Source of the DNA: a virus
Lineage: Duplodnaviria; Heunggongvirae; Uroviricota; Caudoviricetes
Virus record (IMG/VR): IMGVR_UViG_2609460346_000008
Direction: 5' to 3' (one strand)
Length of the DNA stretch: 35,868 nt
The position numbers and the translations under genes are program-made. This document shows, one piece after another, positions 12,429 through 32,374 of this stretch. The notes below the pieces were generated by a model. It ran no database searches. It had not been told where the DNA came from and saw only the letters and a program-made list of their open reading frames with translations. How positions within the stretch are numbered: the first letter of the stretch is position 1; every line of letters begins with the position of its first letter.

Positions 12429-12447
12429 TTAACGCGCTTTAAAATCC
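12429..12447 (+). promoter_or_regulatory. Putative late promoter element P1 (ttaacgcgcTTTAAAATCc) upstream of the lysis/head operon
   Basis: One of four copies of TTAA-N5-TTTAAWATC; its 3' end lies 49 nt upstream of the ATG at 12497. Confidence 0.4.
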
Positions 12448-12496
12448 TTCGCGCCCTGTATTTGTGATGCTGTCTCCACCAGACAAGGAGACACAC

Positions 12497-12847
12497 ATGA
12501 AAAACCTGAAAAAATTCATTCCCCCTGTTAAAAAACCTCGCCTCAGCGGCTGGCTGCTGACCTCAGTGCTGTTGCTGGGCACCATCGCTCTGGTCTCGCC
12601 ACAGCAGTTGCCTGTTGTGATCTACAAGCTGGCACTCATCACGCTGGCAGCAGTGCTGGGTTACTGGCTTGACCGTTCGCTCTTCCCCAAAGCCCGTCCC
12701 GGTCAGTACCTGAAACATGACGACAGGCTGATGGCTGATGGGCGTTTCCCGGTACAGACCGGCCTTCACCTGGTGTTTTCTGCTGCGTTAATCCGCCGTG
12801 CACTGATTGTTGCAGCGGTCTGTCTGGCTGTTGCGATGGGGCTTTAA
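12497..12847 (+). CDS. Membrane protein at the head of the lysis cassette (holin/antiholin candidate)
   Basis: Start ATG at 12497 with AAGGAG 6 nt upstream (track ORF starts at 12464); three predicted hydrophobic helices; immediately precedes the lytic transglycosylase. C-terminus is hydrophobic, which is atypical for a classical holin. Confidence 0.5.
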   Translation: MKNLKKFIPPVKKPRLSGWLLTSVLLLGTIALVSPQQLPVVIYKLALITLAAVLGYWLDRSLFPKARPGQYLKHDDRLMADGRFPVQTGLHLVFSAALIRRALIVAAVCLAVAMGL

Positions 12848-12849
12848 TC

Positions 12850-13587
12850 ATGAACTGGCCGCAGATCACCTGGATTGTATGCATGTCCCTGAAACTGGCT
12901 TTCGAAGCCTTTAGGGTCTTCATCAGAACCGAACGCCTGTCAGTCCGCGCCGGGACCTTTCTGGTTCATATGGCACGGGTATTCTTTGTCGCAATGTTGC
13001 TCTGGTGTGGCGGCTTCTTCAGTCAGGCCCGCGCAGCGCAGCCTCCGCAGGCAGCGCTGCAGTATCGCGATGATGTGATCCGTAATGCCCGGCTTGAATG
13101 GGGACTGTCTGCGCCGGTGGCTGATTTCGCTGCGCAACTGCATCAGGAAAGCGGCTGGCGACCTGATGCGATCTCGCCGGTTGGCGCTCAGGGACTGGCG
13201 CAGTTCATGCCCGCCACCGCCGACTGGATAAGTCAGTTGATGCCGGGGCTTAACAGCCGTGAGCCATTTAATCCGGCATGGGCCATCCGGGCGCTGGTCA
13301 GCTATGACCGCTGGCTGTGGCAGCGCGTCAGCGCCGCCAGTGACTGCGAGCGTATGGCCATGACACTGTCGGGCTATAACGGTGGTCTGGGCTGGGTACA
13401 GCGGGACAGGCGGCTTGCATCACAAAAAGGGCTGGACAGCACCCGCTGGTTTGGTCATGTCGCCACGGTGAATGCCGGACGCAGCACTGCCAGCTGGCGG
13501 GAGAACCGTCATTATCCCCAGCGCATCCTGTTCACGCTGGCCCCGCGTTATCTCTCATGGGGAGGGGCAAGCTGTGTGGGTACGTAA
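12850..13587 (+). CDS. Endolysin: soluble lytic transglycosylase (SLT domain), probably membrane-tethered or secreted (SAR/signal-type)
   Basis: SLT motif ...QESGWRPDAISPVGAQGLAQFMP...; weakly hydrophobic Gly/Ala-rich segment MARVFFVAMLLWCGGFFSQARAA ahead of the catalytic domain; alternative start at the ATG at 12970. Confidence 0.8.
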   Translation: MNWPQITWIVCMSLKLAFEAFRVFIRTERLSVRAGTFLVHMARVFFVAMLLWCGGFFSQARAAQPPQAALQYRDDVIRNARLEWGLSAPVADFAAQLHQESGWRPDAISPVGAQGLAQFMPATADWISQLMPGLNSREPFNPAWAIRALVSYDRWLWQRVSAASDCERMAMTLSGYNGGLGWVQRDRRLASQKGLDSTRWFGHVATVNAGRSTASWRENRHYPQRILFTLAPRYLSWGGASCVGT

Positions 13588-14227
13588 GTTACGGTCGCTG
13601 CCGTGGCGGGGCATTATGCTGGCCATTCTCCTGAACACCTTCCTGCTGGCGATCTGGTGGCTGGGATACAGCACAGGCCACGACCGGGCCTCCGCTGACG
13701 GTCAGGCGGCGCTCAGCCGCCTGCAGGCGGATTTTGACGGATACCGGGCAGAACAGGCCCGGCGTGAGGTGGCGGCGTTGCGCGCATGGTCTGAGCGTTA
13801 TCAGGAGCAGGTAGCCGCCGGGCAACGGGCTGAAGCTGATTATCTTGAGCAGATTGCTCAACTGGAGGACCAGAACAAACAACTACAGGGGCAAATTAAC
13901 GATGTCACACAGCGCTGGATTGATGAAAAAGGTAAGAGCCATCCCATTGAGTGCGTGTTTACTCGCGGTTTCGTGCGCCAGTACAACGCCGCACTCGGAT
14001 ACGACAACGCATCCGTCGACACCGGTCATTCAGACTCAGTTGCCGCCGCTGGCACCGGCACTGGCGCAGCGACCGGGCAACCTGAAACCGCTGACGCCCG
14101 GTTACGCAATTCGGGTGTCTCCCAGCTTGACGTCCTTGCCAACATCATCGACAACGCAGGGCAATGTCGTCGCTGGCGAAACCAGATAAACGCGCTACTG
14201 GATGAACGGGAAGGATTACAGAAATGA
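13574..14227 (+). CDS. i-spanin (Rz-like)
   Basis: GTG start at 13574 with GGAGG 8 nt upstream; N-terminal TM helix (IMLAILLNTFLLAIWWLGY) followed by coiled-coil-like periplasmic region; contains a nested +1-frame lipoprotein ORF. Confidence 0.6.
   Translation: MWVRKLRSLPWRGIMLAILLNTFLLAIWWLGYSTGHDRASADGQAALSRLQADFDGYRAEQARREVAALRAWSERYQEQVAAGQRAEADYLEQIAQLEDQNKQLQGQINDVTQRWIDEKGKSHPIECVFTRGFVRQYNAALGYDNASVDTGHSDSVAAAGTGTGAATGQPETADARLRNSGVSQLDVLANIIDNAGQCRRWRNQINALLDEREGLQK
13923..14189 (+). CDS. o-spanin (Rz1-like outer-membrane lipoprotein), embedded in the i-spanin gene
   Basis: MKKVRAIPLSACLLAVSC lipoprotein-type signal with lipobox Cys, followed by a Pro/Thr/Ser-rich mature region; entirely nested in the +1 frame of the i-spanin gene. 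Confidence 0.5.
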   Translation: MKKVRAIPLSACLLAVSCASTTPHSDTTTHPSTPVIQTQLPPLAPALAQRPGNLKPLTPGYAIRVSPSLTSLPTSSTTQGNVVAGETR

Positions 14228-14550
14228 CACTGCAGGTTGAATTCTGGACGGTGGTGAGTTTTTTGCTCACCTTCATGGGGTTTGTGGGAGGGCTCGCCAA
14301 ATGGTTGTTCAGTAAAACAGAAGAACGCCAGGCGGCACGATTCGCCTCCCTTGAGCAGGCCCTGCAACAGTCCGCCTCCAACTGGGGCGAACTGGAAAAA
14401 GAATTTATGCGATTTAAAGCGGATTTACCGCTGAATTATGTCCGTCGCGAGGATTATATCCGTGGCCAGACAGTCATCGAGGCCAAACTGGACGCGCTCT
14501 ACAACAAACTGGAAGTGGTACAGCAGTACCGCAATACCGGAGGTCAATAA
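14224..14550 (+). CDS. Hypothetical single-pass membrane protein (108 aa)
   Basis: ATGA overlap with the i-spanin stop; N-terminal TM helix, hydrophilic helical C-terminus. Confidence 0.5.
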   Translation: MTLQVEFWTVVSFLLTFMGFVGGLAKWLFSKTEERQAARFASLEQALQQSASNWGELEKEFMRFKADLPLNYVRREDYIRGQTVIEAKLDALYNKLEVVQQYRNTGGQ

Positions 14551-14861
14551 TGGTCGATATTACCCGGGTACGCCGCGAATCCCTGCGCTGGAGTCTGCTG
14601 GTTGCCCTGAACAAAACCCGCCCTTATACCGCCAGCGAGACGCTGCTGCTGGAAGTGTCCCGCGCCATCTACCCGGACACCACGCAACTGGAGCTGCGCC
14701 GTGAGCTTGATTACCTGGCAGATCGCAAGATGGTGGAACTGGAGAAGAGGCCTTCCGGTGACTGGTTTGCCGATCTGAGTCGCCTTGGTGTGGATATTGT
14801 GGAATACACCGTGGAATGCGGCCCCGGTATTGCCCGCCCGGAAAAATACTGGAGTGAGTGA
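14550..14861 (+). CDS. Hypothetical protein (103 aa)
   Basis: TAATG overlap with the upstream stop; GGAGG 8 nt upstream. Confidence 0.5.
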   Translation: MVDITRVRRESLRWSLLVALNKTRPYTASETLLLEVSRAIYPDTTQLELRRELDYLADRKMVELEKRPSGDWFADLSRLGVDIVEYTVECGPGIARPEKYWSE

Positions 14862-14863
14862 TT

Positions 14864-15406
14864 ATGGGACGTCGCAGCAGCATTGATTCTCTGCCGAAGG
14901 AGGTCCGTCGCTGGCTTGAGCGGGCACTGACGGAGAATAATTTCACCGGCTATGCAGAGCTTGAAAGTCTGTTGAAGGAAAAGGGGTACAGCATCACCCG
15001 CTCTTCCCTGCAGCGGTTTGGCTACAAAATGGAGCAGCAACTGGCCCGGGTGCGGGCGGCAACCGAGGCAGCGCGTCTGCTTGCCCGGGAGGCCGGAGAC
15101 GATCCTGATGACCGTTCAGCCGGGCTGATAACCCTCGTCCAGACCGAAATGACGGATATCCTGATGCGCCTGCAGGAGTCGCGGGAAAACGACGATCCCT
15201 TCGCCCGGGCAAAACTGCTGGCAACGGCTTCAAAAAATATCGCCACACTGACCCGCGCCTCGGTCAACCTCAAGCGCTATCAGGCAGAAGTCAGAGAGAG
15301 GGTTGAACGTGCTGCCGCTGCCGCCGAGAAAATTGCCCGTAAGGGCGGGCTCTCTGCGGAAGCCGTACAGGCACTGCGCCGGGAAATTCTGGGGGTGGTA
15401 TCATGA
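14864..15406 (+). CDS. Mu gp27-like protein (DUF3486-like; probable small terminase subunit)
   Basis: Position immediately upstream of the large terminase; start ATG at 14864 with GGAG 9 nt upstream (track begins at the GTG at 14858). Confidence 0.6.
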   Translation: MGRRSSIDSLPKEVRRWLERALTENNFTGYAELESLLKEKGYSITRSSLQRFGYKMEQQLARVRAATEAARLLAREAGDDPDDRSAGLITLVQTEMTDILMRLQESRENDDPFARAKLLATASKNIATLTRASVNLKRYQAEVRERVERAAAAAEKIARKGGLSAEAVQALRREILGVVS

Positions 15407-16926
15407 CGGAGCTGCCGCCGCACATTCCTGACACCGCGAGTTATAAGGCCCCTCCCGTTCTGTTGCCCTACCAGCAGCGCTGGGTGGCAGATGCCTCTCC
15501 GCTTAAGGTGATAGAAAAGAGCCGTCGTACCGGTATTACATGGGCTGAGGCATCCGATAACGTACTGACCGCCGCCTCTTCTGCGCCAGCAGGCGGGATG
15601 AATGTGTATTACATCGCTTATAACCAGGACATGACCGTCGAATACATTCAGGCGTGTGCGATGTGGGCACGGGCATTCAACTATGCGGCCAGTGAAATTG
15701 AAGAAGGATTCTGGGAAGAGGACGACGACGACAAACACATCAGGACTTACACCATCAAATTTCCTGACTCCGGCTTTCGTATTGTTGCGCTCTCCAGCCG
15801 CCCGTCTAACCTGCGTGGCCGTCAGGGTATTATTGTTATCGACGAAGCGGCGTTCCATGAGCAACTGGACGAACTGCTGAAAGCGGCGCTGGCGATGCTT
15901 ATCTGGGGGGGAAAGGTACGCGTTATCTCCACCCATGACGGTGACGACAATCCGTTCAATACGCTTATCGGGGATATCCGTGCCGGACGTCAGGGAGGCA
16001 GCGTACATCGCATTACTTTCCGGGAAGCCGTATCTGAGGGGCTGTTCCGGCGCGTCTGTCTGCGCACCGGGAAGGAATGGTCGGAGGCATCCGAGCAGGC
16101 CTGGATGGCGTCGGTGTACAAATTCTACGGTGCCGGTGCATCCGAAGAGCTTGACTGTATTCCGGCCAACGGTGGCGGTGCCTGGCTGTCCCGAGCCCTG
16201 ATAGAGTCCCGCATGTCCGCTGATACGCCGGTATTGCGTCTGACCTGCAAGGAAGGTTATGAACTGCTGTCTGATGAGGTTCGCTTCCGCGAGACGCAGG
16301 ACTGGCTTGATGAGCATCTGAAACCATTACTGGAGGCGCTCCCCGCTGGTGCCCGCTCTTTTCTGGGGCGTGACTTTGGCCGTAGCGGGGATTTGTCGGT
16401 GGACTACCCGTTGTTGCAGGAGAAGAACCTGATACGACGCGTGCCATTCGTACTGGAGTTGCGTAACGTGCCGTTCAGGCAGCAGGAGCAAATCACCTGG
16501 TATCTGATGGATGGCCTGCCCGGTCTGCTGGGTGCAGCGTTTGATGCCCGTGGTAATGGTGCCTATCTGGCTGAATACGCCATGCAGCGCTACGGCTCCG
16601 GCCGGGTTCAGCAGGTGATGCCAACCGAAGGCTGGTACCGGGAGCATATGCCTCCGGTCAAAGCTGCACTGGAAGACGGTAACCTGGTGGACTTACCAAA
16701 GGATGAAGACACACTGGATGACCTGCGGGCCGTTCAGGTGGTGAACGGTGTCCCCCGCGTGCCGGAGCAACGCTCAAAAGCAAAGGCTGATGGTGGTAAA
16801 CGTCACGGGGATTCAGCCATCGCACTGGCGCTGGCGTATTTCGCCAGCCGTGAAATTAACAAAGGGCCGGTGAAGGCAAGCTCACGCCGTCGTCGTCAGG
16901 CGGCCCGCATGCTGGAGGGGTACTGA
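15403..16926 (+). CDS. Terminase large subunit (Mu gp28-like)
   Basis: 507 aa; position between the gp27-like and portal genes; ATGA coupling to the upstream gene. Confidence 0.8.
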   Translation: MTELPPHIPDTASYKAPPVLLPYQQRWVADASPLKVIEKSRRTGITWAEASDNVLTAASSAPAGGMNVYYIAYNQDMTVEYIQACAMWARAFNYAASEIEEGFWEEDDDDKHIRTYTIKFPDSGFRIVALSSRPSNLRGRQGIIVIDEAAFHEQLDELLKAALAMLIWGGKVRVISTHDGDDNPFNTLIGDIRAGRQGGSVHRITFREAVSEGLFRRVCLRTGKEWSEASEQAWMASVYKFYGAGASEELDCIPANGGGAWLSRALIESRMSADTPVLRLTCKEGYELLSDEVRFRETQDWLDEHLKPLLEALPAGARSFLGRDFGRSGDLSVDYPLLQEKNLIRRVPFVLELRNVPFRQQEQITWYLMDGLPGLLGAAFDARGNGAYLAEYAMQRYGSGRVQQVMPTEGWYREHMPPVKAALEDGNLVDLPKDEDTLDDLRAVQVVNGVPRVPEQRSKAKADGGKRHGDSAIALALAYFASREINKGPVKASSRRRRQAARMLEGY

Positions 16927-18422
16927 TGGCTAAAGGTATCTGGGTTTCACCCGATGAATTTGTTGCTTTTTCTGAGCCTCAGAAATCACTGACCGCGCAG
17001 ATTGCCTCCCGCAGCCGCGCGATCGACTTTTACGGACTGGGCATGTATCTGCCCAATCCTGATCCCATTCTCAAGGCTCAGGGACGGGATATCCGTATCT
17101 ACCGCGAACTGCGCACCGACCCGCTGGTCGGGGGCTGTATCCGCAGACGTAAAGCAGCGCTCAAATCACTGGAGCGTGGACTGGAGCGCGGTCACGCTTC
17201 TGCCCGGGTCTTCCGTTTCATCCGCGACATGCTCGACGATCTGGATCTGTCCCGCATCATCGGTGAGATGAGTGATGCCGTGCTCTACGGGTATCAGCCC
17301 TGTGAAATCATGTGGGGCCGTTCGGTCAGGGCGTGGGCAGTGACGGATATTGTCGGCAAACCGCCTGAGTGGTTTCAGTTTGATACGGACAACTGCCTGC
17401 GCTTCCGGGCGCGTGATGCGGGTGTGGAGGGTGAGCTGCTGTCACCGTCAAAATTCGTGGTGCCGGCACAGGATGCCTCGTATGACAATCCTTACGGTTT
17501 CCCGGACCTGTCCATGTGCTTCTGGCCGGTCGCCTTCAAGAAAGGCGGGATGAAATTCTGGCTCCGCTTTGCCGAAAAGTTTGGCTCCCCGTGGGTGATC
17601 GGTAAGCACCCGAGGGGTGCAAATGATGCAGAGATTGAAAAACTGCTGGACTCCATGGAGCAGATGGTGGAGGACGCGGTGGCCGCCATCCCCGATGACA
17701 GCAGCATCGAACTCAAAGCCGCGGATGGTAAGGCGGACAGCAGCGAGGTATTCCGCGAGCTGATCACACTGTCACGCAGTGAGATCTCCATTGCATTACT
17801 TGGTCAGAATCAGACCACGGAAGCGAACAGTAACAAGGCCTCTGCACAGGCCGGGCTGGAGGTAACGGCTGATATCCGCGATGCGGATGCGGACATCATT
17901 CAGGCAGCAGTGAATCAGGTTATCAGAACGGTGGTCACCCTGAACTTCGGCGATGTGCCGTGTCCGGTCTGGGCCATGTGGGAACAGGAGACCATTGATG
18001 ACACCCGCGCCACCCGCGACGAAAAACTCACCCGGGCGGGTCTGCGTCTGACCCCGCAATACTTTAAGCGTGAGTACCAGCTGCAGGACGGCGATATTGA
18101 CGAGACACCACCGTCGGAACGCCAGAATAACATGCTGCCGCTGTCATTTGCCGAGGCGATTGATGCCGATATTCAGGCTCAGCAGCAGCTTGACGACGCG
18201 CTGGACATTCTGATGAACGGAGGTGTGTTAAATGGCACGCTGGAACCCGTCCTGGCACCTCTGTTTAAGCGGGTCGAAAACGGGGTTAACCCGTCTGAGC
18301 TGCTGGGCGAACTGGCGGAGCTCTACCCTCAGATGAACACGGACGATCTGCAGGAACGGCTGGCCCGCATTCTCTTTGTGGCAAATATCCGGGGGCGTCT
18401 GCATGAGCGTGACAACGGCTGA
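16926..18422 (+). CDS. Portal protein (Mu gp29-like)
   Basis: 498 aa; directly after the large terminase with ATGA overlap; followed by the F-like head morphogenesis gene. Confidence 0.8.
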   Translation: MAKGIWVSPDEFVAFSEPQKSLTAQIASRSRAIDFYGLGMYLPNPDPILKAQGRDIRIYRELRTDPLVGGCIRRRKAALKSLERGLERGHASARVFRFIRDMLDDLDLSRIIGEMSDAVLYGYQPCEIMWGRSVRAWAVTDIVGKPPEWFQFDTDNCLRFRARDAGVEGELLSPSKFVVPAQDASYDNPYGFPDLSMCFWPVAFKKGGMKFWLRFAEKFGSPWVIGKHPRGANDAEIEKLLDSMEQMVEDAVAAIPDDSSIELKAADGKADSSEVFRELITLSRSEISIALLGQNQTTEANSNKASAQAGLEVTADIRDADADIIQAAVNQVIRTVVTLNFGDVPCPVWAMWEQETIDDTRATRDEKLTRAGLRLTPQYFKREYQLQDGDIDETPPSERQNNMLPLSFAEAIDADIQAQQQLDDALDILMNGGVLNGTLEPVLAPLFKRVENGVNPSELLGELAELYPQMNTDDLQERLARILFVANIRGRLHERDNG

Positions 18423-19224
18423 ACTGGCGTACTGCATGACGCTTCCCCCGAAGCGGGCAGTCAGTTACCTGAAGTCCAAAGGGTATCAGATTACCTGGGA
18501 CTGGGAAGAAATGTGGCAGGAGGCCCATGCCCGCGCCTTTACCGTTGCTAAAGTGACCCGCCTGGATATCCTGGAAGATATTCGCGGGGCACTGCAGCAG
18601 GCTGTCGATGAAGGAAAAACCGATCGCTGGTTCCGGCAGGAGCTGGAGCCGGTGCTGAAGCGTAAGGGATGGTGGGGACCACGTGACACGACTGACCCGG
18701 TAACGGGTGAGCCGGTCACCATTCAGCAGGGCAGTCCGTGGCGGCTCGATACCATCTTTCGCACCAATATGTCCGTACTCTACAGCGCCGGTCGTTGGGC
18801 GGAACAGATGGAAAACGTCGACGACAGGCCGTACTGGATGTATACCGGCATCAACGACAGCCATACCCGCAGGAGCCATCTGGCGCTGCATGGTCTGGTG
18901 CTGCGCTGGGATGACCCGTTCTGGCAGGCATTTTACCCGCCGAACGGCTGGCGCTGCCGCTGTAGTGTGATTGCCCTGAGTGCGGCGGATGTCCGTGCCC
19001 GTGGCCTGAAGGTTATCAGCTCCGGCTCTGCCATGGGCCAGGAACTGAAACTGGTCTCAGAGAAAACCGGCGAAATGCGGAACGTGGCCACCTTTAATAC
19101 CGGCACCACGAAGGTGACCACCGACGTCGGCTGGTCTTATGCACCGGGGGCAGCATACCGTCCCGACCTGGCCCGCTATCAGGGTACGCTTCAGCCACTG
19201 GCACAACAGGAACTGAGAGGATAA
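18403..19224 (+). CDS. Head morphogenesis protein (Mu F / gp30-like)
   Basis: Start at the ATG at 18403 (MSVTTAELAY...), overlapping the portal 3' end; conserved Mu head-module order. Confidence 0.7.
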   Translation: MSVTTAELAYCMTLPPKRAVSYLKSKGYQITWDWEEMWQEAHARAFTVAKVTRLDILEDIRGALQQAVDEGKTDRWFRQELEPVLKRKGWWGPRDTTDPVTGEPVTIQQGSPWRLDTIFRTNMSVLYSAGRWAEQMENVDDRPYWMYTGINDSHTRRSHLALHGLVLRWDDPFWQAFYPPNGWRCRCSVIALSAADVRARGLKVISSGSAMGQELKLVSEKTGEMRNVATFNTGTTKVTTDVGWSYAPGAAYRPDLARYQGTLQPLAQQELRG

Positions 19225-19226
19225 CA

Positions 19227-19685
19227 ATGGCTTCCGATAACCTGGTCAGTATCACCATTAACGATAAATCCCTGCGCCGGAGCCTCCGTGCGCTGGATCT
19301 TGCTGCCACAGACCTGGAGCCCGCGATGCGCAAAATCGCCGGAACCCTGCTGGCGGAAACACAGTTTAACTTTCTTGATGAGGGGCGTCCGGGGTGGATC
19401 CCCTCGCTGGCAGCGGAAGAACGTGACGGGCAGACACTGCAGGATACCGGGCGTCTGATGGGGTCAGTATCAACCGACCATGACGACCGGCAGGCTGTTG
19501 TGGGGACCAACGTTGTTTACGGTGCCATTCACCAGTTCGGGGGTAAAACGGGGCGTAATGAGTCTGTTGAACTTCCGGCCCGCCCGTTCCTGCCGGTGAC
19601 GGGGGATGGAGAACTACAGCCTGAAGTGGTAATCCCCATCCTCGATACCATTGTCCGCCATCTTGAATCAGCGGCCCGTCGCTGA
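19227..19685 (+). CDS. Virion morphogenesis protein (Mu G-like)
   Basis: 152 aa; follows the F-like gene; upstream of the 214-bp intergenic region that precedes the protease/scaffold gene, as in Mu. Confidence 0.65.
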   Translation: MASDNLVSITINDKSLRRSLRALDLAATDLEPAMRKIAGTLLAETQFNFLDEGRPGWIPSLAAEERDGQTLQDTGRLMGSVSTDHDDRQAVVGTNVVYGAIHQFGGKTGRNESVELPARPFLPVTGDGELQPEVVIPILDTIVRHLESAARR

Positions 19686-19731
19686 GTTTTCTCTCTTCAG
19701 GCGGGTGATTTATCATTGCCAGCGAATGAGG

Positions 19732-19763
19732 GGCTGTATTACCTTTATAAAGGCTTTACAGCC
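19732..19763 (+). terminator. Hairpin/terminator after the G-like gene (outer 7-bp stem GGCTGTA/TACAGCC enclosing 12-bp palindrome CCTTTATAAAGG)
   Basis: Read from sequence; followed by tcTGTTTTat. Confidence 0.4.
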
Positions 19764-19826
19764 TCTGTTTTATAACCGCCTCCGGTTCACCGCATTGCTT
19801 TCCCTGTCCTTCTCCCCTGATGTTTT

Positions 19827-19845
19827 CTAAAGCAGATTAAAATCG
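19827..19845 (+). promoter_or_regulatory. Putative late promoter element P2 (ctaaagcagaTTAAAATCg) upstream of the protease/scaffold-capsid operon
   Basis: Degenerate copy of TTAA-N5-TTTAAWATC; 3' end 54 nt upstream of the ATG at 19900. Confidence 0.35.
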
Positions 19846-19899
19846 CCGGGCCTGCATTTCTCACAAACTGTCTCCGACAACATAACGCGGGACAGCAAA

Positions 19900-21015: not shown

Positions 21016-21029
21016 TTTAAGGAGAGAGC

Positions 21030-21983
21030 ATGTCTGATTACTTAAAAGGTAAACGTGTCGTTGATCCGGTACTGACCAGTATCGCCCGTGGCTATAAAAA
21101 TGCCGCATTCATCGGCGAACGTATTTTCCCCGTCGTGCTGACGGACAAGGAAGGCGTGCGTGTACCGACCTTCGGGAAAACCGCCTTTGTGGAATATGAC
21201 ACCGAGCGTGCCGTCGGGGCGGACAGCAATGTTCTGGTCCGTGAAAAAACAGGCACGCTGGACCTGGTGCTGGGTGAACACGATCTGGCTGCGCCGGTGG
21301 ACTATCGCGAGCAGGCGGAGTCCATGTTTAACGAAGAGAGCAAGGCCATCCGTCGCGCCACGAATGGCGTGAACCTGCGCCGTGAACTTATCGCTGCCCG
21401 TCTGGCTCAGGATGAAAAGGTCTACCGTACCGGGCACGTCAAAAAACTGACAGCCAGTGATCGCTGGGCCGGTGGTAAGGGGGACCCCATCGGGGTGATT
21501 GAAGCCGGTATGGAAGCGGTCCGTACGGCCACGGGGCTGCGTCCTAACCTGATGACCATGGGGGCCGGCGTGATGGCGCTGCTGAAGTTCCATCCGGCAC
21601 TTCAGGCTGCCATCGGAGCCAACGAACGCAAGCGCATCACCACAGAAATCCTGCAGGACCTCTTTCAGATCGAAGAGATCGTCATCGGTGCGCCTGTCTC
21701 CCTGCCGTCCATGAAAGCGGCAATGGATAAGGACAGCGTGCCGGCGGATATCTGGGGAGACAACCTGATGCTGCACTATGTCGGCAAACCGCAGCCCGGG
21801 GCGGACAGCGCGGACGAGAACGAGCCGTCCTTCGGCTACACACTGCGTCGTAAGGGGATGCCTGTTGCTGACAAATACGACGGAGCCGGTGGCAAGGTGA
21901 AGTACTGCCGTTATACCGATATCTACAAAGTCGCCGTGGTTGGTGGCGATGCCGGGTATCTCATCACCGGTATCAGTAAATAA
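21030..21983 (+). CDS. Major head subunit (Mu T-like)
   Basis: 317 aa; position after the protease/scaffold gene; AGGAG-type RBS. Confidence 0.8.
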   Translation: MSDYLKGKRVVDPVLTSIARGYKNAAFIGERIFPVVLTDKEGVRVPTFGKTAFVEYDTERAVGADSNVLVREKTGTLDLVLGEHDLAAPVDYREQAESMFNEESKAIRRATNGVNLRRELIAARLAQDEKVYRTGHVKKLTASDRWAGGKGDPIGVIEAGMEAVRTATGLRPNLMTMGAGVMALLKFHPALQAAIGANERKRITTEILQDLFQIEEIVIGAPVSLPSMKAAMDKDSVPADIWGDNLMLHYVGKPQPGADSADENEPSFGYTLRRKGMPVADKYDGAGGKVKYCRYTDIYKVAVVGGDAGYLITGISK

Positions 21984-21992
21984 GGAGGCGTT

Positions 21993-22331: not shown

Positions 22332-22332
22332 C

Positions 22333-24911: not shown

Positions 24912-25432
24912 TGTCAAAGATTGAGATAAACCGCATCACGAATGCCAACATCTATCTGGATGGTACTAACCTGCTGGGACGGGCTGAGGAAGTTAAACTC
25001 CCCGATGTCTCCATGATTATGCAGGAACACAAGGCGCTGGGGATGGTGGGTAAGGTGGAACTCCCGGCTGGTTTTGACAAACTGGAAGGCGAAATCAAAT
25101 GGAACAGCTTTTACCGCGATGCGATGCTGTCTGCCGCGAACCCGTACAGGTCGCTGGCACTGCAGTGTCGTTCCAGCGTCCAGCGCTACAGCTCGCAGGG
25201 GCTGATTGACGAAATCCCGCTGGTCACCTTCCTGACGATTATGTTCAAGAAGAACCCGCTGGGGACGTTCAAACAGCACGAGAACGCCGAGTTCTCCAGT
25301 AGCTTCACCTGCACGTATATCAGACAGGTACTGGATGGTGAAGAGCTGCTGCAACTGGACTATCTGGCCAACATCTTCCGGGTCGGCGGTGTTGATCAAC
25401 TGACTGACTACCGTATCAATATCGGGGGCTGA
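24911..25432 (+). CDS. Tail tube protein (Mu M-like)
   Basis: 173 aa; directly downstream of the sheath gene. Confidence 0.75.
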   Translation: MSKIEINRITNANIYLDGTNLLGRAEEVKLPDVSMIMQEHKALGMVGKVELPAGFDKLEGEIKWNSFYRDAMLSAANPYRSLALQCRSSVQRYSSQGLIDEIPLVTFLTIMFKKNPLGTFKQHENAEFSSSFTCTYIRQVLDGEELLQLDYLANIFRVGGVDQLTDYRINIGG

Positions 25433-25434
25433 CG

Positions 25435-25716
25435 GTGAGTGTTGAACTGACGGATAAAGGAGGACGATGTGCGGCACTGGGCATGTCAAATGGTACGTGG
25501 TTTACCCTCCTTGATATTCCGGGGGTGGAAACCCTTTTTAATACCCGTAAAACCAATGACCCGATTGACTGCACACGTTCAAAGGCCCGCAAACTGGCGG
25601 ATTTGATTGAAGCATGGGAGCCTCCCGACCACTGGTTCTCCGGCACCGGCAAATCTGAGGGAAAGACGCTTCTCATCGCTTTCCTGCGTAACTGCAAGGG
25701 GTTTCGCACTTGCTGA
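25435..25716 (+). CDS. Hypothetical protein (93 aa, GTG start)
   Basis: GTG at 25435 with GGGGG 6 nt upstream; followed by a terminator-like hairpin. Confidence 0.4.
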   Translation: MSVELTDKGGRCAALGMSNGTWFTLLDIPGVETLFNTRKTNDPIDCTRSKARKLADLIEAWEPPDHWFSGTGKSEGKTLLIAFLRNCKGFRTC

Positions 25717-25722
25717 CATCAC

Positions 25723-25745
25723 AGGGGCTCCGGCCCCTTCTTCTT
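25723..25745 (+). terminator. Rho-independent terminator/attenuator after the sheath-tube block
   Basis: 6-bp stem AGGGGC/GCCCCT with loop tccg (25723-25738), followed by TCTTCTT. Confidence 0.5.
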
Positions 25746-25762
25746 AATCTCCTTTAATATCC
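25744..25762 (+). promoter_or_regulatory. Putative late promoter element P3 (ttaatctccTTTAATATCc) upstream of the chaperone/tape-measure operon
   Basis: Copy of TTAA-N5-TTTAAWATC; 3' end 51 nt upstream of the ATG at 25814; a -10-like catact lies about 20 nt downstream of the motif. Confidence 0.4.
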
Positions 25763-25813
25763 GTCACGCGCTTCTCCCGACATACTGCCCTGAACTTACA
25801 CAGGAGCACAATC

Positions 25814-26149
25814 ATGTCACAGACCCCATCCGATACTTTTAAATTGTCTTATCCCTTCACCACTGCTGCAGGCACCAGAATTGAGCTGGTTGAACTGAAA
25901 CGCCTGACGGTAAAAGACCTGAAGCAGGTGCGCAAAATCAGCAAAAACCCGGCAGACTGGGACGAACCGCTGATTGCCCGCAGTACTGGTCTTCTCCCGG
26001 AGGATCTCGACAATATGGATCTGGCTGATTACCTGCAGTTACAGAAACGATTTCAGCTCATCACGGGGATGGGTGAGAGCAACCAGGGCGCTGACGCAGG
26101 CGCAGGGGCTGCTGGCGAGATGGTTCCGGTTTCAGCCGGGGGAGATTGA
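25814..26149 (+). CDS. Tail assembly chaperone (P2 E / Mu gp41-like)
   Basis: 111 aa; located between tube and tape measure; acidic Gly/Ala-rich C-terminus; overlapped by an alternative-frame ORF. Confidence 0.6.
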   Translation: MSQTPSDTFKLSYPFTTAAGTRIELVELKRLTVKDLKQVRKISKNPADWDEPLIARSTGLLPEDLDNMDLADYLQLQKRFQLITGMGESNQGADAGAGAAGEMVPVSAGGD

Positions 26150-26231
26150 TGCCCTCGATACTGACGATCTGGAGATGTGGCTGGAGCAGGCTGAAGAGCA
26201 AATCAAAAGCGAGTACGGCGACAAATCATAG
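25974..26231 (+). CDS. Alternative-frame extension ORF of the tail chaperone (probable frameshift product C-terminus)
   Basis: Overlaps the chaperone ORF in the +1 frame; acidic C-terminus typical of a chaperone extension; a G5 run at 26138-26142 lies in the overlap. Its own ATG has no RBS and is probably not used. Confidence 0.4.
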   Translation: MPAVLVFSRRISTIWIWLITCSYRNDFSSSRGWVRATRALTQAQGLLARWFRFQPGEIDALDTDDLEMWLEQAEEQIKSEYGDKS

Positions 26232-26236
26232 TACAG

Positions 26237-26257
26237 ACAGCCGCCAGTAGCGGCTGT
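26237..26257 (+). terminator. Hairpin (8-bp stem ACAGCCGC/GCGGCTGT, loop cagta) between chaperone and tape measure genes
   Basis: Read from sequence; weak downstream T-tract, so probably an attenuator or mRNA stability element. Confidence 0.3.
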
Positions 26258-26306
26258 TCTGCGTTATCCCCTCACGTCTTTTCACCTTCCCCGGAGGTTA
26301 ACCACT

Positions 26307-29300
26307 ATGTCGGGACAGTTTTCAGTCGGCGTTGTTATCGGCGGGATGATTGGCAGCACATTCCGTTCTGCAATGAGCGGTACCCGCCGTGCGCTTGATT
26401 CCCTGAGCGATACCTCACGCCGCCTGCAGGAACGTCAGAACGCTTTAACCCGTGCAACAGAACGTTATGGTCAACTGGGTTCTTCCCGGATGCAGCATCT
26501 CAACAGCGAGCTGCTGCGGGTAAGCCGCACCATGGAGCAAATTGAGCGCCAGCAGCGCCGTCTGTCAGCGGCATCCGCTACCAGTGATGCGCTGAAAGCT
26601 AACCGCATGGCGCTGTATGGTCAGGGGATTGAAGCGTATGGCATGGCACAGACTGTTTATCATACGGTTTCCCCTGCCGTTCAGCAGTCCATGTCTTTTC
26701 AGGACAAAATGATTGATATGTCGATCACCGCAAAATATGACAATAAAACGCGGGATGCACTTGCCGGACAGATAAAAGGCTGGGCGCTTAAATACAATCA
26801 GTATCAGGATGAGCTGCAGGAGGCGGTGGGTTCACTCATCAGCGACAATATTGATAATGTGTCAGATATCGGTTTTCTGATGCCGGATATTGCCCGCGCG
26901 GCAACGGCAACACGCACGTCTGCTCAGGACTGGGCAAAAGTGGCCGCAGTCTGGCAAAACTCCCTGAAAGGTGCGGCCAGAGATTTTGGTGCCGTTCAGA
27001 ATATTATGGCTTATGCCGGTGACCAGGGGTCATTTGAAATCCCGGATCAGGTCAAGTGGATGCAGTCCCTGGCCCCAATGATGGCGGGTATTGCCAGTGG
27101 AAAAGAGGCTGTTGCTGAAATCGGGGCCAGTCTCCAGATAGCAAAAATCGGTGCAGGTTCCACCGACGAAGCAGCCAATAATTTTAAAAACTTTCTTACC
27201 AAAATTTTTGCCCGCGATACTCAGAAACAGTTTGCTGATCTGGGTATTGATTTGCAGGGATCTATTGCGAGTTATAAGGCTGCGGGGATCTCTCCGATTG
27301 AAGGGATGTTGAGTGTTATAGAACGTTACCTCAATGCCAAAAGCCCCGAAGCGCTGGCCGGCTTCAAATCCGCCATGAAAATAAAGAATGATACGGCAAG
27401 AGATGAGGCACTTCAGGCTCTGGCGAAAAACTTTGGTCTGGGTGATATGTTCGCGGATATGCAGGTCATGGCATTTATCCGCCCGATGCTGGCCAACATG
27501 GACAGATATCGAGAGATCCGTGCCGGTGCTCTCAGGGCTGCGGATAACGATTTGCTTGCCAGTGCTTACGATCAGCGACTGAAATCTCCCCTTGAAGCCA
27601 CTAAAACACTTATGGTCAGCAGTCGCGATCTGGCAATTACGCTGGGCGATCAATTAGCTCCATCTTTTATTTCTTTGACTCAGGAACTGCTTCCACTCAT
27701 TCAGGGGGCAAAACACTGGGTAGCGACTCACCCGCAATTTGTCAGTGGGGCTTTTAAGCTCATCAGTGCGCTCCTTGCGATTAAGATAGCGACTGTTGGT
27801 CTCAAACTGGGGCTGAATCTCCTTATTTCCCCCTTTGTAAGTGTCTGGAAAAATGCTGTTTTACTCCGGACCAACTGGCATCGACTGACTACCGCACTCG
27901 GAGAAGGTGGCAAATTACGCTGGCTTGTCACTGGATTCAGCCGACTGACCAGCGGAGGACTGAAACTCAGCAAAGTTCTGGCGGGCAGCCTCGTTCGCGG
28001 TTTTATGAGCGCTGCACGTGCCGTTCTCTGGATTGGGCGAGCGCTGATGATGAATCCCATCGGTCTCGTTATCACCGCTGTCGCGGCAGCAGCTTACCTT
28101 ATCTACCGCAACTGGGGGGCTGTCAGTGGTTGGTTTAAACAGCGCTGGGCTGACATTCAGGAAGCCTTTAACGGCGGCATTGTGGGAACTGGTAAGTTGC
28201 TGATTAACTGGTCGCCGGCAGGCCTGCTCTATAAAGCCTTTGCGGCTGCGCTGAAATATTTCGGCGTTGCTCTGCCGGCAAAGTTCACCGACTTCGGTGG
28301 CCATCTTATCGACGGTCTGATTAACGGTATCAAAAGCAAATGGGGGTCGCTCAAATCCAGTGTAACCGGAATGGGTGACAGCATCAGTAGCTGGTTTAAA
28401 CAGCGCTGGGCTGACATTCAGGAAGCCTTTAACGGCGGCATTGTGGGAACTGGTAAGTTGCTGATTAACTGGTCGCCGGCAGGCCTGCTCTATAAAGCCT
28501 TTGCGGCTGCGCTGAAATATTTCGGCGTTACTCTGCCGGCAAAGTTCACCGACTTCGGTGGCCATCTTATCGACGGTCTGATTAACGGTATCAAAAACAA
28601 ATGGGGGTCGCTCAAATCCAGTGTAACCGGAATGGGTGACAGCATCAGTAGCTGGTTTAAACAGTGCTGGGCTGACATTCAGGAAGCCTTTAACGGCGGT
28701 ATCGCGGGAACTGGTAAGCTGCTGATTAACTGGTCGCCGGCAGGTCTGCTCTATAAAGCCTTTGCAGCTGCGCTGAAATATCTTGGTGTTGATCTGCCGG
28801 CAAAGTTTACCGACTTCGGTGGCCATCTTGTCGATGGTCTGATTAACGGTATCAAAAACAAATGGGAGTCGCTCAAATCCAGTGTAACCGGAATGGGCGA
28901 CAGCATCAGTGGCTGGTTCAGCGAAAAGCTGGGCATTCATTCGCCGAGCCGCGTGTTTATGGGCTTTGGTGACAATATCGCGCAGGGGGCCGCCATTGGC
29001 CTGCAGCGGACCACTCCGCTTGCAGCTCTGGCCGGGCAGCGAATGGCCAGTGAACTGCTCCCCAGAATGCCCGTGAGCATTCAGGGGCCAGAAATACGGG
29101 ATAACACTTCAGGTGTTCGCTTCAGTATGCCGTTGCCCGATATCAATGGGTTTATGTCGTCTGCTAAAAATGCGATCGGAGCCGTAATCAATAGTTTGTC
29201 TTCCATGCCCGCTATCCCGCTCTCCACCCGGGCATCGATTTTACCAGGGCAACGTCTGGCAAATGAGATGACACCGGATGTTCCCCGTATCCCCTCGCCT

Positions 29301-29519
29301 GAAATCATGGCTGCCGGATATTCAGGCCGTGGTGCAGCTGCAACCGGCGGTGGAACGTCTGGTGGTATCCAGGTCAGCTTTAATCCTCAGTTTTTCCTCA
29401 ATGGCAGGGAAACCACAGCGCCTGCAGGACTGACTGGTGCCCTGAATATGAGTCTGCATGAGCTGGAAAAAATGCTGGAGCGTCTGCTGGCTCAGAAACA
29501 ACGTAAGGAGTACCGCTGA
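26307..29519 (+). CDS. Tail tape measure protein (1070 aa) with internal tandem repeats
   Basis: Longest ORF in the tail module; GGAGG RBS 9 nt upstream; Ala/Gly-rich helical regions plus hydrophobic segments; three 87-aa tandem repeats. Confidence 0.9.
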   Translation: MSGQFSVGVVIGGMIGSTFRSAMSGTRRALDSLSDTSRRLQERQNALTRATERYGQLGSSRMQHLNSELLRVSRTMEQIERQQRRLSAASATSDALKANRMALYGQGIEAYGMAQTVYHTVSPAVQQSMSFQDKMIDMSITAKYDNKTRDALAGQIKGWALKYNQYQDELQEAVGSLISDNIDNVSDIGFLMPDIARAATATRTSAQDWAKVAAVWQNSLKGAARDFGAVQNIMAYAGDQGSFEIPDQVKWMQSLAPMMAGIASGKEAVAEIGASLQIAKIGAGSTDEAANNFKNFLTKIFARDTQKQFADLGIDLQGSIASYKAAGISPIEGMLSVIERYLNAKSPEALAGFKSAMKIKNDTARDEALQALAKNFGLGDMFADMQVMAFIRPMLANMDRYREIRAGALRAADNDLLASAYDQRLKSPLEATKTLMVSSRDLAITLGDQLAPSFISLTQELLPLIQGAKHWVATHPQFVSGAFKLISALLAIKIATVGLKLGLNLLISPFVSVWKNAVLLRTNWHRLTTALGEGGKLRWLVTGFSRLTSGGLKLSKVLAGSLVRGFMSAARAVLWIGRALMMNPIGLVITAVAAAAYLIYRNWGAVSGWFKQRWADIQEAFNGGIVGTGKLLINWSPAGLLYKAFAAALKYFGVALPAKFTDFGGHLIDGLINGIKSKWGSLKSSVTGMGDSISSWFKQRWADIQEAFNGGIVGTGKLLINWSPAGLLYKAFAAALKYFGVTLPAKFTDFGGHLIDGLINGIKNKWGSLKSSVTGMGDSISSWFKQCWADIQEAFNGGIAGTGKLLINWSPAGLLYKAFAAALKYLGVDLPAKFTDFGGHLVDGLINGIKNKWESLKSSVTGMGDSISGWFSEKLGIHSPSRVFMGFGDNIAQGAAIGLQRTTPLAALAGQRMASELLPRMPVSIQGPEIRDNTSGVRFSMPLPDINGFMSSAKNAIGAVINSLSSMPAIPLSTRASILPGQRLANEMTPDVPRIPSPEIMAAGYSGRGAAATGGGTSGGIQVSFNPQFFLNGRETTAPAGLTGALNMSLHELEKMLERLLAQKQRKEYR
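28131..28913 (+). repeat. Three in-frame tandem repeats of 261 bp (87 aa) inside the tape measure gene
   Basis: Unit starts at 28131, 28392 and 28653 (tggtttaaacagcgctgggctgacattcaggaagcc...); copies 1 and 2 nearly identical, copy 3 slightly diverged. Confidence 0.9.
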
Positions 29520-30403
29520 TGTTTGCCGTACTGGGTGATATTGAGTTTGAGCTGATTACCTACTGGGACGGCTTCGAGGCCACGTTCGGCGTCGATTATG
29601 CGGAGCATGCCCGCATCGGGGGTAAGCCTGGCCTGCAGTTCGTCGGCGACAGGCTGGACGAAATCCAGATAACTCTGGTTTTCCATCAGCATTATTGTGT
29701 ACCCGATGTGGAGCTGGCGAGACTGCGAACAGCCATGAAAGCCCATCAGGCACTGGCGCTGGTCTTCGGCAACGGTGACTATCGCGGCTGGTTCGTGATT
29801 ACCGATGTGACCGCAACCAGCGAGCAGACTGACAGTACCGGCAACGTGCTGGCTGTCAGTGCCACCGTGTCTCTCCGGGAATACACCGGTGACCCGAAAA
29901 ATCCTCTGCAACCACCGGCAATACGCACGAAGCTCCCGGGTGTCGGGGCGGTCTCCGGTGCCATACCTTCACCTTCAGGGGTGGCGCAGTTCATCCGCAA
30001 CGGCGTCAACTATGCGAAACAGGCGCAGTCTGTACTCCAGACCACTATCAGCGCCGTTCGGGTGACACAGAAAATGAAGGATAACCCCGTTGTCGCACTG
30101 ACCCGTGTGCCGGGGCTGATGAGCGGACTGGGTAATATCTCCGGGGCTCTGGGGAAAAGTGTTCCGGCGTTTAACGCACTCTCTGAATCCATGCCCGATG
30201 CCATCAGTCTGGCCAGAACAGCCAGCGAAGCAGCCACGTATGTACAGCAGGCACAGTCTGCGCTGAGTGGTGTGGACAAAAGAAATATTGCAGGTGCTCT
30301 GGATACCGTTTCCGGGCAGCTTAACGCCGCCGGCACAGCATTCAACCGCATGTCTCCGGGATTAAGTGCAATGGCCGCCAGAATACTGACGAGGAGTGTG
30401 TGA
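29519..30403 (+). CDS. Tail protein with P2 gpU-like N-terminal domain and Ala/Ser-rich C-terminal extension
   Basis: ATGA overlap with the tape measure stop; AAGGAG RBS; N-terminal segment ...GNGDYRGWFVITDVTATSE... resembles the gpU tail-completion fold. Confidence 0.55.
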   Translation: MFAVLGDIEFELITYWDGFEATFGVDYAEHARIGGKPGLQFVGDRLDEIQITLVFHQHYCVPDVELARLRTAMKAHQALALVFGNGDYRGWFVITDVTATSEQTDSTGNVLAVSATVSLREYTGDPKNPLQPPAIRTKLPGVGAVSGAIPSPSGVAQFIRNGVNYAKQAQSVLQTTISAVRVTQKMKDNPVVALTRVPGLMSGLGNISGALGKSVPAFNALSESMPDAISLARTASEAATYVQQAQSALSGVDKRNIAGALDTVSGQLNAAGTAFNRMSPGLSAMAARILTRSV

Positions 30404-30615
30404 TGTTTCTTGAACATGTTACCCGTGACGGAGAGCGCTGGGATTCGCTGGCATGGCAGTACTACGGTGACCCGCTGGGCTATCCCCGGATTATTGCCGC
30501 CAATCCGCACGTGGCCATCACGCCGGTGCTGCCCTCCGGGCTGTTGTTACTGATCCCGGTGATTGAGGCTGAAGAAGCCCGTACAGAAGAGGATATTGCC
30601 CCATGGCTGAGATAA
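30403..30615 (+). CDS. Tail protein X (P2 gpX-like, LysM-like)
   Basis: 70 aa; GAGGAG 6 nt upstream of the ATG at 30403 (track starts at the GTG at 30400). Confidence 0.6.
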   Translation: MFLEHVTRDGERWDSLAWQYYGDPLGYPRIIAANPHVAITPVLPSGLLLLIPVIEAEEARTEEDIAPWLR

Positions 30616-31757
30616 ACAGCACTGCGCAAGTCACATCAGCGTTAACCAGCGTCAGCGATGTGCTGACACCGGTGTTCACTCTGTGGTATCTGCAGAAAAA
30701 CATCACCTCTGATATCGCGCCTTATGTCACCCGTGTGACCTGGAGCGATAACATCAAAAATGAGTCCGATACCATTGAGGTGGAGCTGGACGACACCGAT
30801 GGCCGCTGGCTGGATAAGTGGTATCCGGGCAAGGGTGACACGCTGACGCTGAAAATGGGCTATCAGGGCGAGAAGCTGCTGTCCTGCGGTACGTTCTCTA
30901 TAGACGAGATCGAAGTGAGTTCGCCCGCTTCCGTTGTTTCTATCCGTGGGGTGGCCACCTCGGTTAACAGTGCCCTGCGGACTAAAACCAGTCGTGGTTT
31001 TGAGAACACCACGCTGGCAGCTGTTGCGGGGCGGATTGCCAGAAAGCACCGACTGAAACTGGTGGGCAGCATTGAGTCCATCAGAATCGACCGGGTGACC
31101 CAGTATGCTGAAACCGACGTGGGTTTTCTGCGCCGGCTGGCCAGCGAGTATGGTTATGCAGTGAAAGTGGTCAGTGACCAGCTGATTTTTTCTCATCTGG
31201 CCACACTGCGCAGTCAGGAGCCGGTCAGGCAGTTAAAACCGCAGGATGTGGCCCGCTTTTCCCTGCGTGACACCATCAACCGGGTCTATAAATCTGCAAA
31301 GGTAAAACACCAGAAAAGCAGCAGTAAAAAACTGATCGTCTACGAAGCTGATGGTGGTACCCGTGAAAGCGACAAAAAGCTCAAAGGTGGTAAGGTTACC
31401 AGCGCTGACTCACTTAAAGTTAACAGCCGCGTCAGCGACCCGGACAGTGCCCGGATTAAAGCGGATTCAGCACTGGCCAGACATAACGAATACCAGCAGA
31501 ACGGCTCCCTGACGCTGACGGGAACACCTCAACTGACAGCAGGCAACAAAATTGAACTGGTGAGTTTTGGGCAGTTATCCGGGCCATGGCTCATAACCAC
31601 TGCCCGCCATGCGTTTGACCGTAACAGCGGCTACACCACAGAGCTGGAAGTGGCACGGGGGCCAGTCACAAGAGGGAAAAAACAAAAAACTCAGAAACTC
31701 ACGGTTTATCACCCGGATGGCAGTACATCGACGGTGATTAAGGAGAAGAAAAAATGA
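30603..31757 (+). CDS. Tail protein D (P2 gpD-like; baseplate hub/late control D family)
   Basis: 384 aa; overlaps the gpX-like gene's 3' end; position upstream of the V/W/J/I baseplate genes. Confidence 0.7.
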   Translation: MAEINSTAQVTSALTSVSDVLTPVFTLWYLQKNITSDIAPYVTRVTWSDNIKNESDTIEVELDDTDGRWLDKWYPGKGDTLTLKMGYQGEKLLSCGTFSIDEIEVSSPASVVSIRGVATSVNSALRTKTSRGFENTTLAAVAGRIARKHRLKLVGSIESIRIDRVTQYAETDVGFLRRLASEYGYAVKVVSDQLIFSHLATLRSQEPVRQLKPQDVARFSLRDTINRVYKSAKVKHQKSSSKKLIVYEADGGTRESDKKLKGGKVTSADSLKVNSRVSDPDSARIKADSALARHNEYQQNGSLTLTGTPQLTAGNKIELVSFGQLSGPWLITTARHAFDRNSGYTTELEVARGPVTRGKKQKTQKLTVYHPDGSTSTVIKEKKK

Positions 31758-32350
31758 CTGGTGTCACTCGTCAGGTCGGTACGGTCAGTGCCGTTGATGC
31801 CGACAGGGTTCAGGCCCGCGTTCGTCTGCCTGAATGCGATAACCTGCGCACAAACTGGCTTAACGTGCTGCAGCGCAATACCCAGGATAACAAAGATTAC
31901 TGGCTCCCTGACGTGGGGGAGCAGGTTGAGGTGCTGCTCGATGCCAACGGCGAGGATGGTGTTATTCTGGGCGCGGTGTATTCAGACGTCGATAAACCAC
32001 CGTTCAGTGACAAAAATATCCGGGGAACCCGGTTTGCTGATGGTGCAGAGTACAGCTACAACCGGAAGACGCACACTCTGATCATCCGGGGCGGCATTGA
32101 GCATATTGTCATTGAGTGTGGTGCTGATGTGGTATTGAAAACACAGAAAGCCACGATTGACGCACCGGAAACCGAACTTACCGGAGATCTGCGTGTCAGG
32201 GGTAAGCTGATTTACGAAGGAGGCATGGCGGGGTCTGGTGGTGAAGGTGTTACCGCGACCATCCATGGCAATATCGAGATTAAAGGGAATGCCCATGCCA
32301 CGGGCAGTATGTTGTCTGATGGCGAAAACTCCAGCCACCACTCCCACTGA
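31754..32350 (+). CDS. Baseplate spike protein (P2 gpV-like)
   Basis: 198 aa; ATGA coupling to the D-like gene; Gly-rich C-terminus with a His-rich tip (SSHHSH) consistent with a spike apex. Confidence 0.7.
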   Translation: MTGVTRQVGTVSAVDADRVQARVRLPECDNLRTNWLNVLQRNTQDNKDYWLPDVGEQVEVLLDANGEDGVILGAVYSDVDKPPFSDKNIRGTRFADGAEYSYNRKTHTLIIRGGIEHIVIECGADVVLKTQKATIDAPETELTGDLRVRGKLIYEGGMAGSGGEGVTATIHGNIEIKGNAHATGSMLSDGENSSHHSH

Positions 32351-32355
32351 GCTTT

Positions 32356-32374
32356 TTAAACGCCTTTAATATCA
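32356..32374 (+). promoter_or_regulatory. Putative late promoter element P4 (ttaaacgccTTTAATATCa) upstream of the W-J-I-fibre operon
   Basis: Copy of TTAA-N5-TTTAAWATC; 3' end 30 nt upstream of the ATG at 32405; a -10-like aatact lies about 20 nt downstream. Confidence 0.4.

Follow-up and report, generated by a model that had tools for sequence, protein, structure and literature searches.

We analyzed a 35,868-nucleotide stretch of Caudoviricetes DNA (IMG/VR virus record IMGVR_UViG_2609460346_000008, referred to here in its entirety as the window), in which a short A/T-rich element recurs at the heads of the late operons. The repeated element is very probably the activator box of Mor-dependent late promoters in a BcepMu-like prophage. 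By analogy with phage Mu, Mor is predicted to be the protein that binds the box and the one on which the promoters depend, with transcription predicted to start at approximately positions 12478, 19876, 25793, and 32405 and, on the minus strand, at approximately position 10991. Control of this type is well known for Mu-like phages, and its mapping is new for the BcepMu-like family. The motif was not described in the literature that we searched. The original BcepMu paper (J Mol Biol 2004) fell outside that search, and an earlier mention there is possible.

The initial annotation described the element as a 19-bp motif, TTAA-N5-TTTAAWATC, at four sites. The sequence and the sites were correct, but the pattern as written has 18 positions. 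Exact plus-strand copies occur at 12429-12446, 25744-25761, and 32356-32373, and exact matches in the window were confined to these three late-operon sites. The analytic expectation is about 6e-4 copies, and there were no matches to the exact pattern in 100 dinucleotide-preserving shuffles. When up to two mismatches were allowed, 6 hits were observed versus 0.48 expected: the three exact copies, the remaining annotated site at 19827-19844 (two mismatches), the opposite-strand palindromic reflection of the copy at 32356, and a copy at 3817-3834. This last copy, also with two mismatches, lacks a -10 element at the required distance and scored -0.2 bits in the composite matrix, and it was dropped. 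All four annotated sites were therefore confirmed, but the count was too low because a fifth copy on the minus strand (11040-11023) had been missed. A family weight matrix, built from relatives only and with the window excluded, scored the four sites at 28 to 31 bits and the fifth at 22.7 bits. The next real hit in the window reached 8.9 bits, and the best score in 200 shuffles was 18.7 bits. In the annotation of Escherichia phage PhiKM, the late region has just three true intergenic gaps of 50 nt or more; these hold three of the four plus-strand copies, and the other copy lies upstream of the holin gene. From the end of the motif to the first start codon the distances are 50, 55, 52, and 31 nt, in agreement with the 30 to 55 nt first reported; the 50-nt figure takes ATG 12497, where the PHROG match begins, as the holin start.

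The four plus-strand copies also share what follows them. When they were aligned, each had, exactly 19 nt after the terminal ATC, a hexamer whose second base is A and whose sixth is T, and then a G. At P1, which heads the lysis/terminase/portal operon, the box TTAACGCGCTTTAAAATC (12429-12446; the dyad TTAA-N6-TTAA plus AATC, predicted to span -49 to -32) is followed after 19 nt by the -10 hexamer GATGCT (12466-12471). Transcription is predicted to start at about 12478, and the holin ATG at 12497 has the Shine-Dalgarno (SD) sequence aaggag. At P2, a conserved variant of the box, CTAAAGCAGATTAAAATC (19827-19844), heads the protease/scaffold-capsid-sheath-tube operon; its -10 hexamer is CAAACT (19864-19869), with a predicted start at about 19876 and the protease ATG at 19900. 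P3 heads the operon that runs from the tail chaperone and tape measure genes to gpV and consists of the box TTAATCTCCTTTAATATC (25744-25761) and the hexamer CATACT (25781-25786), with a predicted start at about 25793 and the chaperone ATG at 25814. P4 heads the baseplate gpW/J/I and fibre operon. Its box is TTAAACGCCTTTAATATC (32356-32373), and its hexamer, AATACT (32393-32398), lies within an inverted repeat, GGGGGC/GCCCCC, with a predicted start at 32405. A -10-like atactgcc had originally been noted after two of the copies. It is there (25782-25789 and 32394-32401), but the other two copies have counterparts, atgctgtc and aaactgtc, at the identical offset.

None of the four plus-strand sites has a -35 hexamer, the relevant positions matching TTGACA at no more than 2 of 6 bases by manual count. 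A consensus promoter scan of 11500-31000 called nothing at the three sites that it covered. The core of the box is a 4-N6-4 dyad, TTAA-N6-TTAA, and its centre is 30 nt upstream of the -10 element in all copies. This places the dyad centre at -42.5 to -43.5 if transcription begins, as predicted, 7 to 8 nt past the hexamer. The P1 dyad can also be read leftward (12400-12442, minus strand), as TTAAAGCGCGTTAAGAGA followed after 19 nt by CAGGAT, with a score of 8.9 bits. In that direction it lies ahead of a 242-amino-acid (aa) gene of unknown function (11638-12366, minus strand) and would be at best a weak divergent promoter.

Judged by its sequence, the window represents an E. coli prophage, transposable and Mu-like, of the BcepMu type (Bcepmuvirus-type). 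Its late region shares 99% identity with PhiKM, a phage assigned to Bcepmuvirus, and 85% with Klebsiella phage KP12. It has the inverted early region, Mu-like head genes, P2-like tail genes, and BcepMu synteny of that group. The early genes (transposase, gam, gemA, and mor) are on the minus strand and run leftward from approximately position 9.5 kb to the left end, and the late genes run rightward from 12497. A 2.6-kb segment from dam to holin matched 635 of 5,426 complete E. coli genomes, including ST131 strains. A search of the whole window against Rfam returned zero matches.

The element is conserved throughout this family. Orthologues of the holin, protease, tail chaperone, and gpW genes were located by tblastn, and their upstream regions were then inspected. 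The box, the spacing, and the -10 element were present upstream of these genes in PhiKM, KP12, BcepMu, phiE255, YO107_2, and 42 prophage loci from a genome-collection scan with a gp36-like head protein. Approximately 45 BcepMu-like phages and prophages, from Gamma- and Betaproteobacteria, have the element at the same four places. Their hosts include Erwinia, Pectobacterium, Dickeya, Photorhabdus, Arsenophonus, Serratia, Burkholderia, Jeongeupia, Chromobacterium, Pandoraea, Dechloromonas, Zoogloea, and Undibacterium. BcepMu and phiE255 have the same four intergenic gaps, with the element in each. The near-universal pattern is [T/C/G]TAA-N5-[A/T]TTAA[A/T]A[T/G]N, 19 nt, and NAnnnT, and the 19-nt distance from box to hexamer is constant at the four late-operon positions across the family. 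There are also promoter-specific flavours: P4 has TTTAATATC in both proteobacterial classes, and P2 has ATTAAAAGC or ATTAAAAGA. Because the P2 flavour is kept among the relatives, the window copy at 19827, which had been called degenerate, is a maintained variant specific to that promoter and not the result of decay. Two other sites were noted in relatives. KP12 has a 26.7-bit matrix hit with 20-nt spacing (405-458, minus strand) within an annotated DNA-invertase gene, and the window has no counterpart of it. In BcepMu, a 16.2-bit box-like site (10453-10500) lies approximately 200 nt upstream of gp19; it scores 8.3 bits in phiE255.

A plausible activator is encoded in the window. The gene at 913-1311 (minus strand) adjoins gemA (1283-1732) and lies close to where the leftward early operon ends. 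Its product matches the Pfam Mor family (E=1.1e-43) and a PHROG late transcriptional activator, and a tblastn search found it to be the sole Mor/C homologue in the window, as the initial annotation had proposed. It is 56% identical to the Mor proteins of BcepMu and phiE255 and approximately 31% identical to Mu Mor. Mu C and Mor contact DNA through a linker and a helix-turn-helix (PMC2582627). In the window protein, the beta-strand linker (GGQNVYFPMG) and the helix-turn-helix (ELARKFGVSLQWVYSVVKRVR) are nearly identical to those of BcepMu gp01 and unlike those of Mu Mor and C, which fits a box that is conserved across the family. A variant prophage of E. coli 3-72 (locus L050) encodes a 183-aa "Mor transcription activator family protein" beside its immunity region (271-819), and both the position and the size of this protein differ from those of the window's Mor.

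The Mu sites of Mor and C are 16-bp imperfect dyads centred at -43.5 that overlap the -35 region of promoters with a -10 element and no -35 element, and positions immediately past the dyad contribute as well (PMC2582627, PMC4287176). Promoters of this class are further expected to be bound directly at the dyad by the activator, with a footprint from approximately -56 to -30, and to need the activator for transcription that begins downstream of the element. The window encodes a PF08765 activator and has the dyad geometry and a -10 element without a -35 element. The element shows the published sequence features of Mor/C sites, including a conserved WATC/AAGA tail, and its architecture matches that of Pm and the late promoters in Mu. 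In the Mu sequence, Pm reads AGTAA-N6-TTAAT, 30 nt from TATCCT, in a register that is inferred and is supported by a cloning primer ("Pm nt9163") that matches position -62. Pmom reads TTAT-N6-ATAA, 31 nt from TAAGAT. As with Pm, the window has a PF08765 activator encoded beside gemA toward the distal end of the early operon, an imperfect dyad in place of the -35 element, a weak -10 element, 30 nt between the dyad centre and the -10 element, and, at P3, the T-tract of a terminator hairpin that abuts the box. The half-sites of the window dyad, TTAA-N6-TTAA, resemble those of Pm but differ from those of Pmom. As with the Mu late promoters, several promoters with a -10 and no -35 element, in the window predicted to be activator-dependent, head late operons. 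P1 and P2 are placed like Plys and PI, before the lysis genes and before protease gene I, and the -10 style NAnnCT is common to both phages (CAAACT in the window and TAGACT in Mu, for example). The tail-module promoters differ, being before the chaperone and gpW genes in the window but before P in Mu.

The fifth box, CTAAACCACATTAACAGA (11023-11040, minus strand; 22.7 bits), is in the gap between a 71-aa open reading frame and the Dam methylase gene and marks a candidate promoter, Pdam. Its -10 hexamer, CATCAT (10998-11003, minus strand), is 19 nt past the box, with a predicted start at about 10991. The Dam ATG is at 10853 (MKEQ...), as in RefSeq and KP12; the mechanically called open reading frame (10089-10943, minus strand) starts too early, at 10943. 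Three relatives have kept the promoter site: E. coli 3-72, with 19-nt spacing; KP12, with 20 nt to CATCCT; and E. coli GON1437. In the GON1437 prophage (locus L051), dam and holin are arranged divergently, with a -10 element on each side of a single dyad, TTAACGCTGTTTAA (3443-3464): 19 nt away on the holin side (GATGCT) and 20 nt away on the dam side (CATGAT). From its sequence, this dyad apparently serves two divergent promoters, for holin and dam, as a bidirectional activator site. Cryo-EM has shown a centrosymmetric Mor/C tetramer, with which such an arrangement would agree.

The predicted 140-nt dam leader (10853-10991, minus strand) is strongly structured (minimum free energy -53.4 kcal/mol, z = -4.85), and its conservation among divergent relatives is high. 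In E. coli 3-72 the first hairpin, CCAGCCCGGC/GCCGGGCTGG, carries a compensatory change and reads CCAGTCCGG/CCGGACTGG. By analogy with com/mom in Mu, the leader may be a translational control element. A fourth C-dependent promoter in Mu drives the DNA-modification gene mom, and in the window the fifth site precedes dam. Pdam would thus give late expression of a DNA-modification gene, as an analogue of Mu Pmom.

Several observations weigh against Mor-dependent promoters or blunt the case for them. When the family matrix was run on the Mu genome, none of Pm, Plys, PI, PP, and Pmom scored significantly. Therefore, the link to Mor rests on architecture and gene presence and not on a shared recognition sequence. 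At the fifth site, KP12 and one E. coli variant have 20-nt instead of 19-nt spacing. Sites selected with a matrix exaggerate apparent invariance, for which matrix-free MAFFT alignments provide a control: conservation in them peaks on TAA, TTAAAA, and the -10 element, and the flanks are unconserved. Finally, transcription starts have been mapped across the genome of B. cenocepacia J2315, which carries BcepMu as a prophage and was grown as an uninduced biofilm, and the published map has none at the four sites orthologous to the late promoters. Within the prophage it lists starts at only gp20, the early region, the interior of gp48, and the antisense strand of gp53. Silence of the late promoters in an uninduced lysogen fits activator dependence, but a map of this kind is negative evidence only and is not decisive.

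We rejected the idea that the window box has the same DNA specificity as Mu Mor or C, because the family matrix recovered no Mu promoter. Its sequence instead points to a distinct specificity within the Mor/C family, as expected at 31% identity. This agrees with the finding that Mu Mor and C do not cross-activate (PMC4287176).

The same failure to score as a Mu Mor or C site could mean that the promoters are real and the box is bound by another factor, either a phage early protein, such as GemA (1283-1732) or a 236-aa protein (166-876), or a host nucleoid protein. Further early proteins of unknown function are indeed co-conserved. However, the dyad has the geometry and position of a Mor/C site, and no late activator other than Mor could be recognised. 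The box also stays constant in hosts of two proteobacterial classes, which points to a factor carried by the phage. Among host proteins, integration host factor has the core consensus WATCAA-N4-TTR, whereas the box has only the WATC tail and not the remainder of that core. We consider a factor other than Mor unlikely.

A slightly poorer prospect is that these are constitutive sigma-70 promoters in which the A/T-rich box is a UP-like element and no dedicated activator is involved. The box is upstream of the -10 element, as this would require, and window P1 has a TGn-like TGT just before its -10 element, but the TGn is not kept in relatives. No copy has a -35 element, the consensus scan called no promoter at the sites that it covered, and a strict dyad with invariant phasing is foreign to UP elements. 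Furthermore, constitutive expression of late structural and lysis genes would kill the lysogen, and the orthologous BcepMu positions had no starts in the uninduced lysogen. Although intergenic DNA is A/T-richer than coding DNA and short motifs in two to four copies can arise randomly, functionless chance or compositional recurrence is effectively refuted by the shuffles (3 exact copies versus about 6e-4 expected), the family conservation (box, spacing, and -10 element kept at four orthologous sites in approximately 45 genomes while the flanks diverge), the matrix scores, and the matrix-free alignment, and we give it almost no credence.

Therefore, Mor-dependent late promoters remain our preferred explanation. 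The original proposal of four activator-dependent late promoters in the Mu pattern is supported by geometry, conservation, and the presence of the Mor gene, but there are five sites and not four. We propose that upon induction the leftward early operon would be transcribed, and the single Mor/C-family protein encoded near its distal end (913-1311, minus strand) would be made. This protein would bind the imperfect dyad nTTAA-N6-TTAAn approximately 43 bp upstream of the start, so that the box would replace the missing -35 element. As for Mu Mor and C, the bound protein would recruit host sigma-70 RNA polymerase to a weak -10 element (NAnnCT, then G) 19 nt past the box. Four plus-strand promoters would then head the lysis/terminase/portal, protease/capsid/sheath/tube, tail chaperone/tape measure, and baseplate/fibre operons, and a fifth, on the minus strand, would head the Dam methylase region. 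Mu Mor serves one promoter and then switches on a second activator, C, whereas the window has no C paralogue. One Mor-type activator apparently serves all five promoters directly, which suggests a two-tier cascade from early to late genes instead of the three tiers of Mu.

The start of the P4 operon has an unusual arrangement. Its first gene, which encodes a gpW/gp25-like baseplate protein (32405-32752, plus strand), has no SD sequence, and its mRNA is predicted to be leaderless. After the TAA at 32357-32359, no in-frame start other than ATG 32405 is available. This ATG begins 6 nt past the -10 element, so that the predicted +1 is the A of the ATG. The distance from the P4 -10 element to the ATG is 6 nt (rarely 7) in nearly all of 22 distinct family sequences, and the six bases vary (GCCCCC, AGCCGC, and GGCCGC, for example). 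A constant distance despite differing bases is what leaderless initiation would demand, and it is independent support for the hexamer as the true -10 element. The protease gene at P2 is arranged likewise in the betaproteobacterial members, with no SD sequence and its ATG at the predicted start. From these sequences, the gpW mRNA is predicted to be leaderless throughout the family and the protease mRNA to be leaderless in the betaproteobacterial members. To our knowledge, there is no report of leaderless first genes in Mu.

At P4 (32387-32407 in the window) and at the betaproteobacterial P2 sites, an inverted repeat flanks the -10 element. It covaries, with G-U-compatible changes included, and examples are GGGGGC/GCCCCC, GGGGAT/GTTCCC, GCCGCC/GGCGGC, GCCGTC/GACGGC, and GCGGCC/GGCCGC. 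The inverted repeat, as a hairpin with the -10 hexamer for its loop, may occlude the AUG in read-through RNA. We tentatively raise the possibility, less likely than not, that promoter choice also decides translation: read-through RNA would carry an occluded AUG without an SD sequence, and only leaderless transcripts initiated with Mor would yield gpW or protease. Separately, one dyad may serve divergent holin and dam in GON1437.

A Mor-dependent late promoter set is what a Mu-like phage would be expected to have; the features that most merit experiment are the leaderless starts, the hairpin, and the bidirectional site. The analysis provides a concrete regulon for BcepMu-like transposable prophages, with five promoters, predicted starts, and operon boundaries. 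It also points to a new DNA specificity in the Mor/C family that can be compared with the recent Mor/C cryo-EM structures. The predicted leaderless transcripts are clean candidates for naturally leaderless mRNAs, and the compact activator/promoter pairs could be tried as synthetic switches.

The late operon structure that had been predicted from the motif is supported by terminator-like hairpins before P2 and P3. Upstream of P2, the hairpin AGGCTTTACAGCCT plus CTGTTTTATA (19751-19764, plus strand) marks the end of the P1 operon, and there is a second terminator-like hairpin at 19668-19685. The end of the P2 operon is marked by the hairpin AGGGGCTCCGGCCCCT (25723-25738, plus strand), whose T-rich tail runs into the P3 box and which is kept in KP12 and BcepMu. 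No terminator was found ahead of P4, and P3 transcripts probably read into the P4 operon. The late regions of P2, 186, and P4 (the satellite phage) are similarly organized, with one small phage activator (Ogr, B, or Delta), four late operons, and promoters without a -35 element, and the window's tail genes are P2-like. However, those activators are unrelated zinc-finger proteins that use a dyad, TGT-N12-ACA, near -55, and the operon boundaries differ from those of the window.

At promoters P1 to P3 of the window, the bases between the -10 element and the predicted start are complementary to the SD region (12472-12490, 19867-19895, and 25784-25808, respectively). The pairs are GTCTCC...GGAGAC at P1, CTGTCTC...GGGACAG at P2, and TGCCCT/TGCTCT...AGGAGCA at P3. 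Such pairing would sequester the SD sequence in read-through RNA and leave it free in RNA initiated at the promoter.

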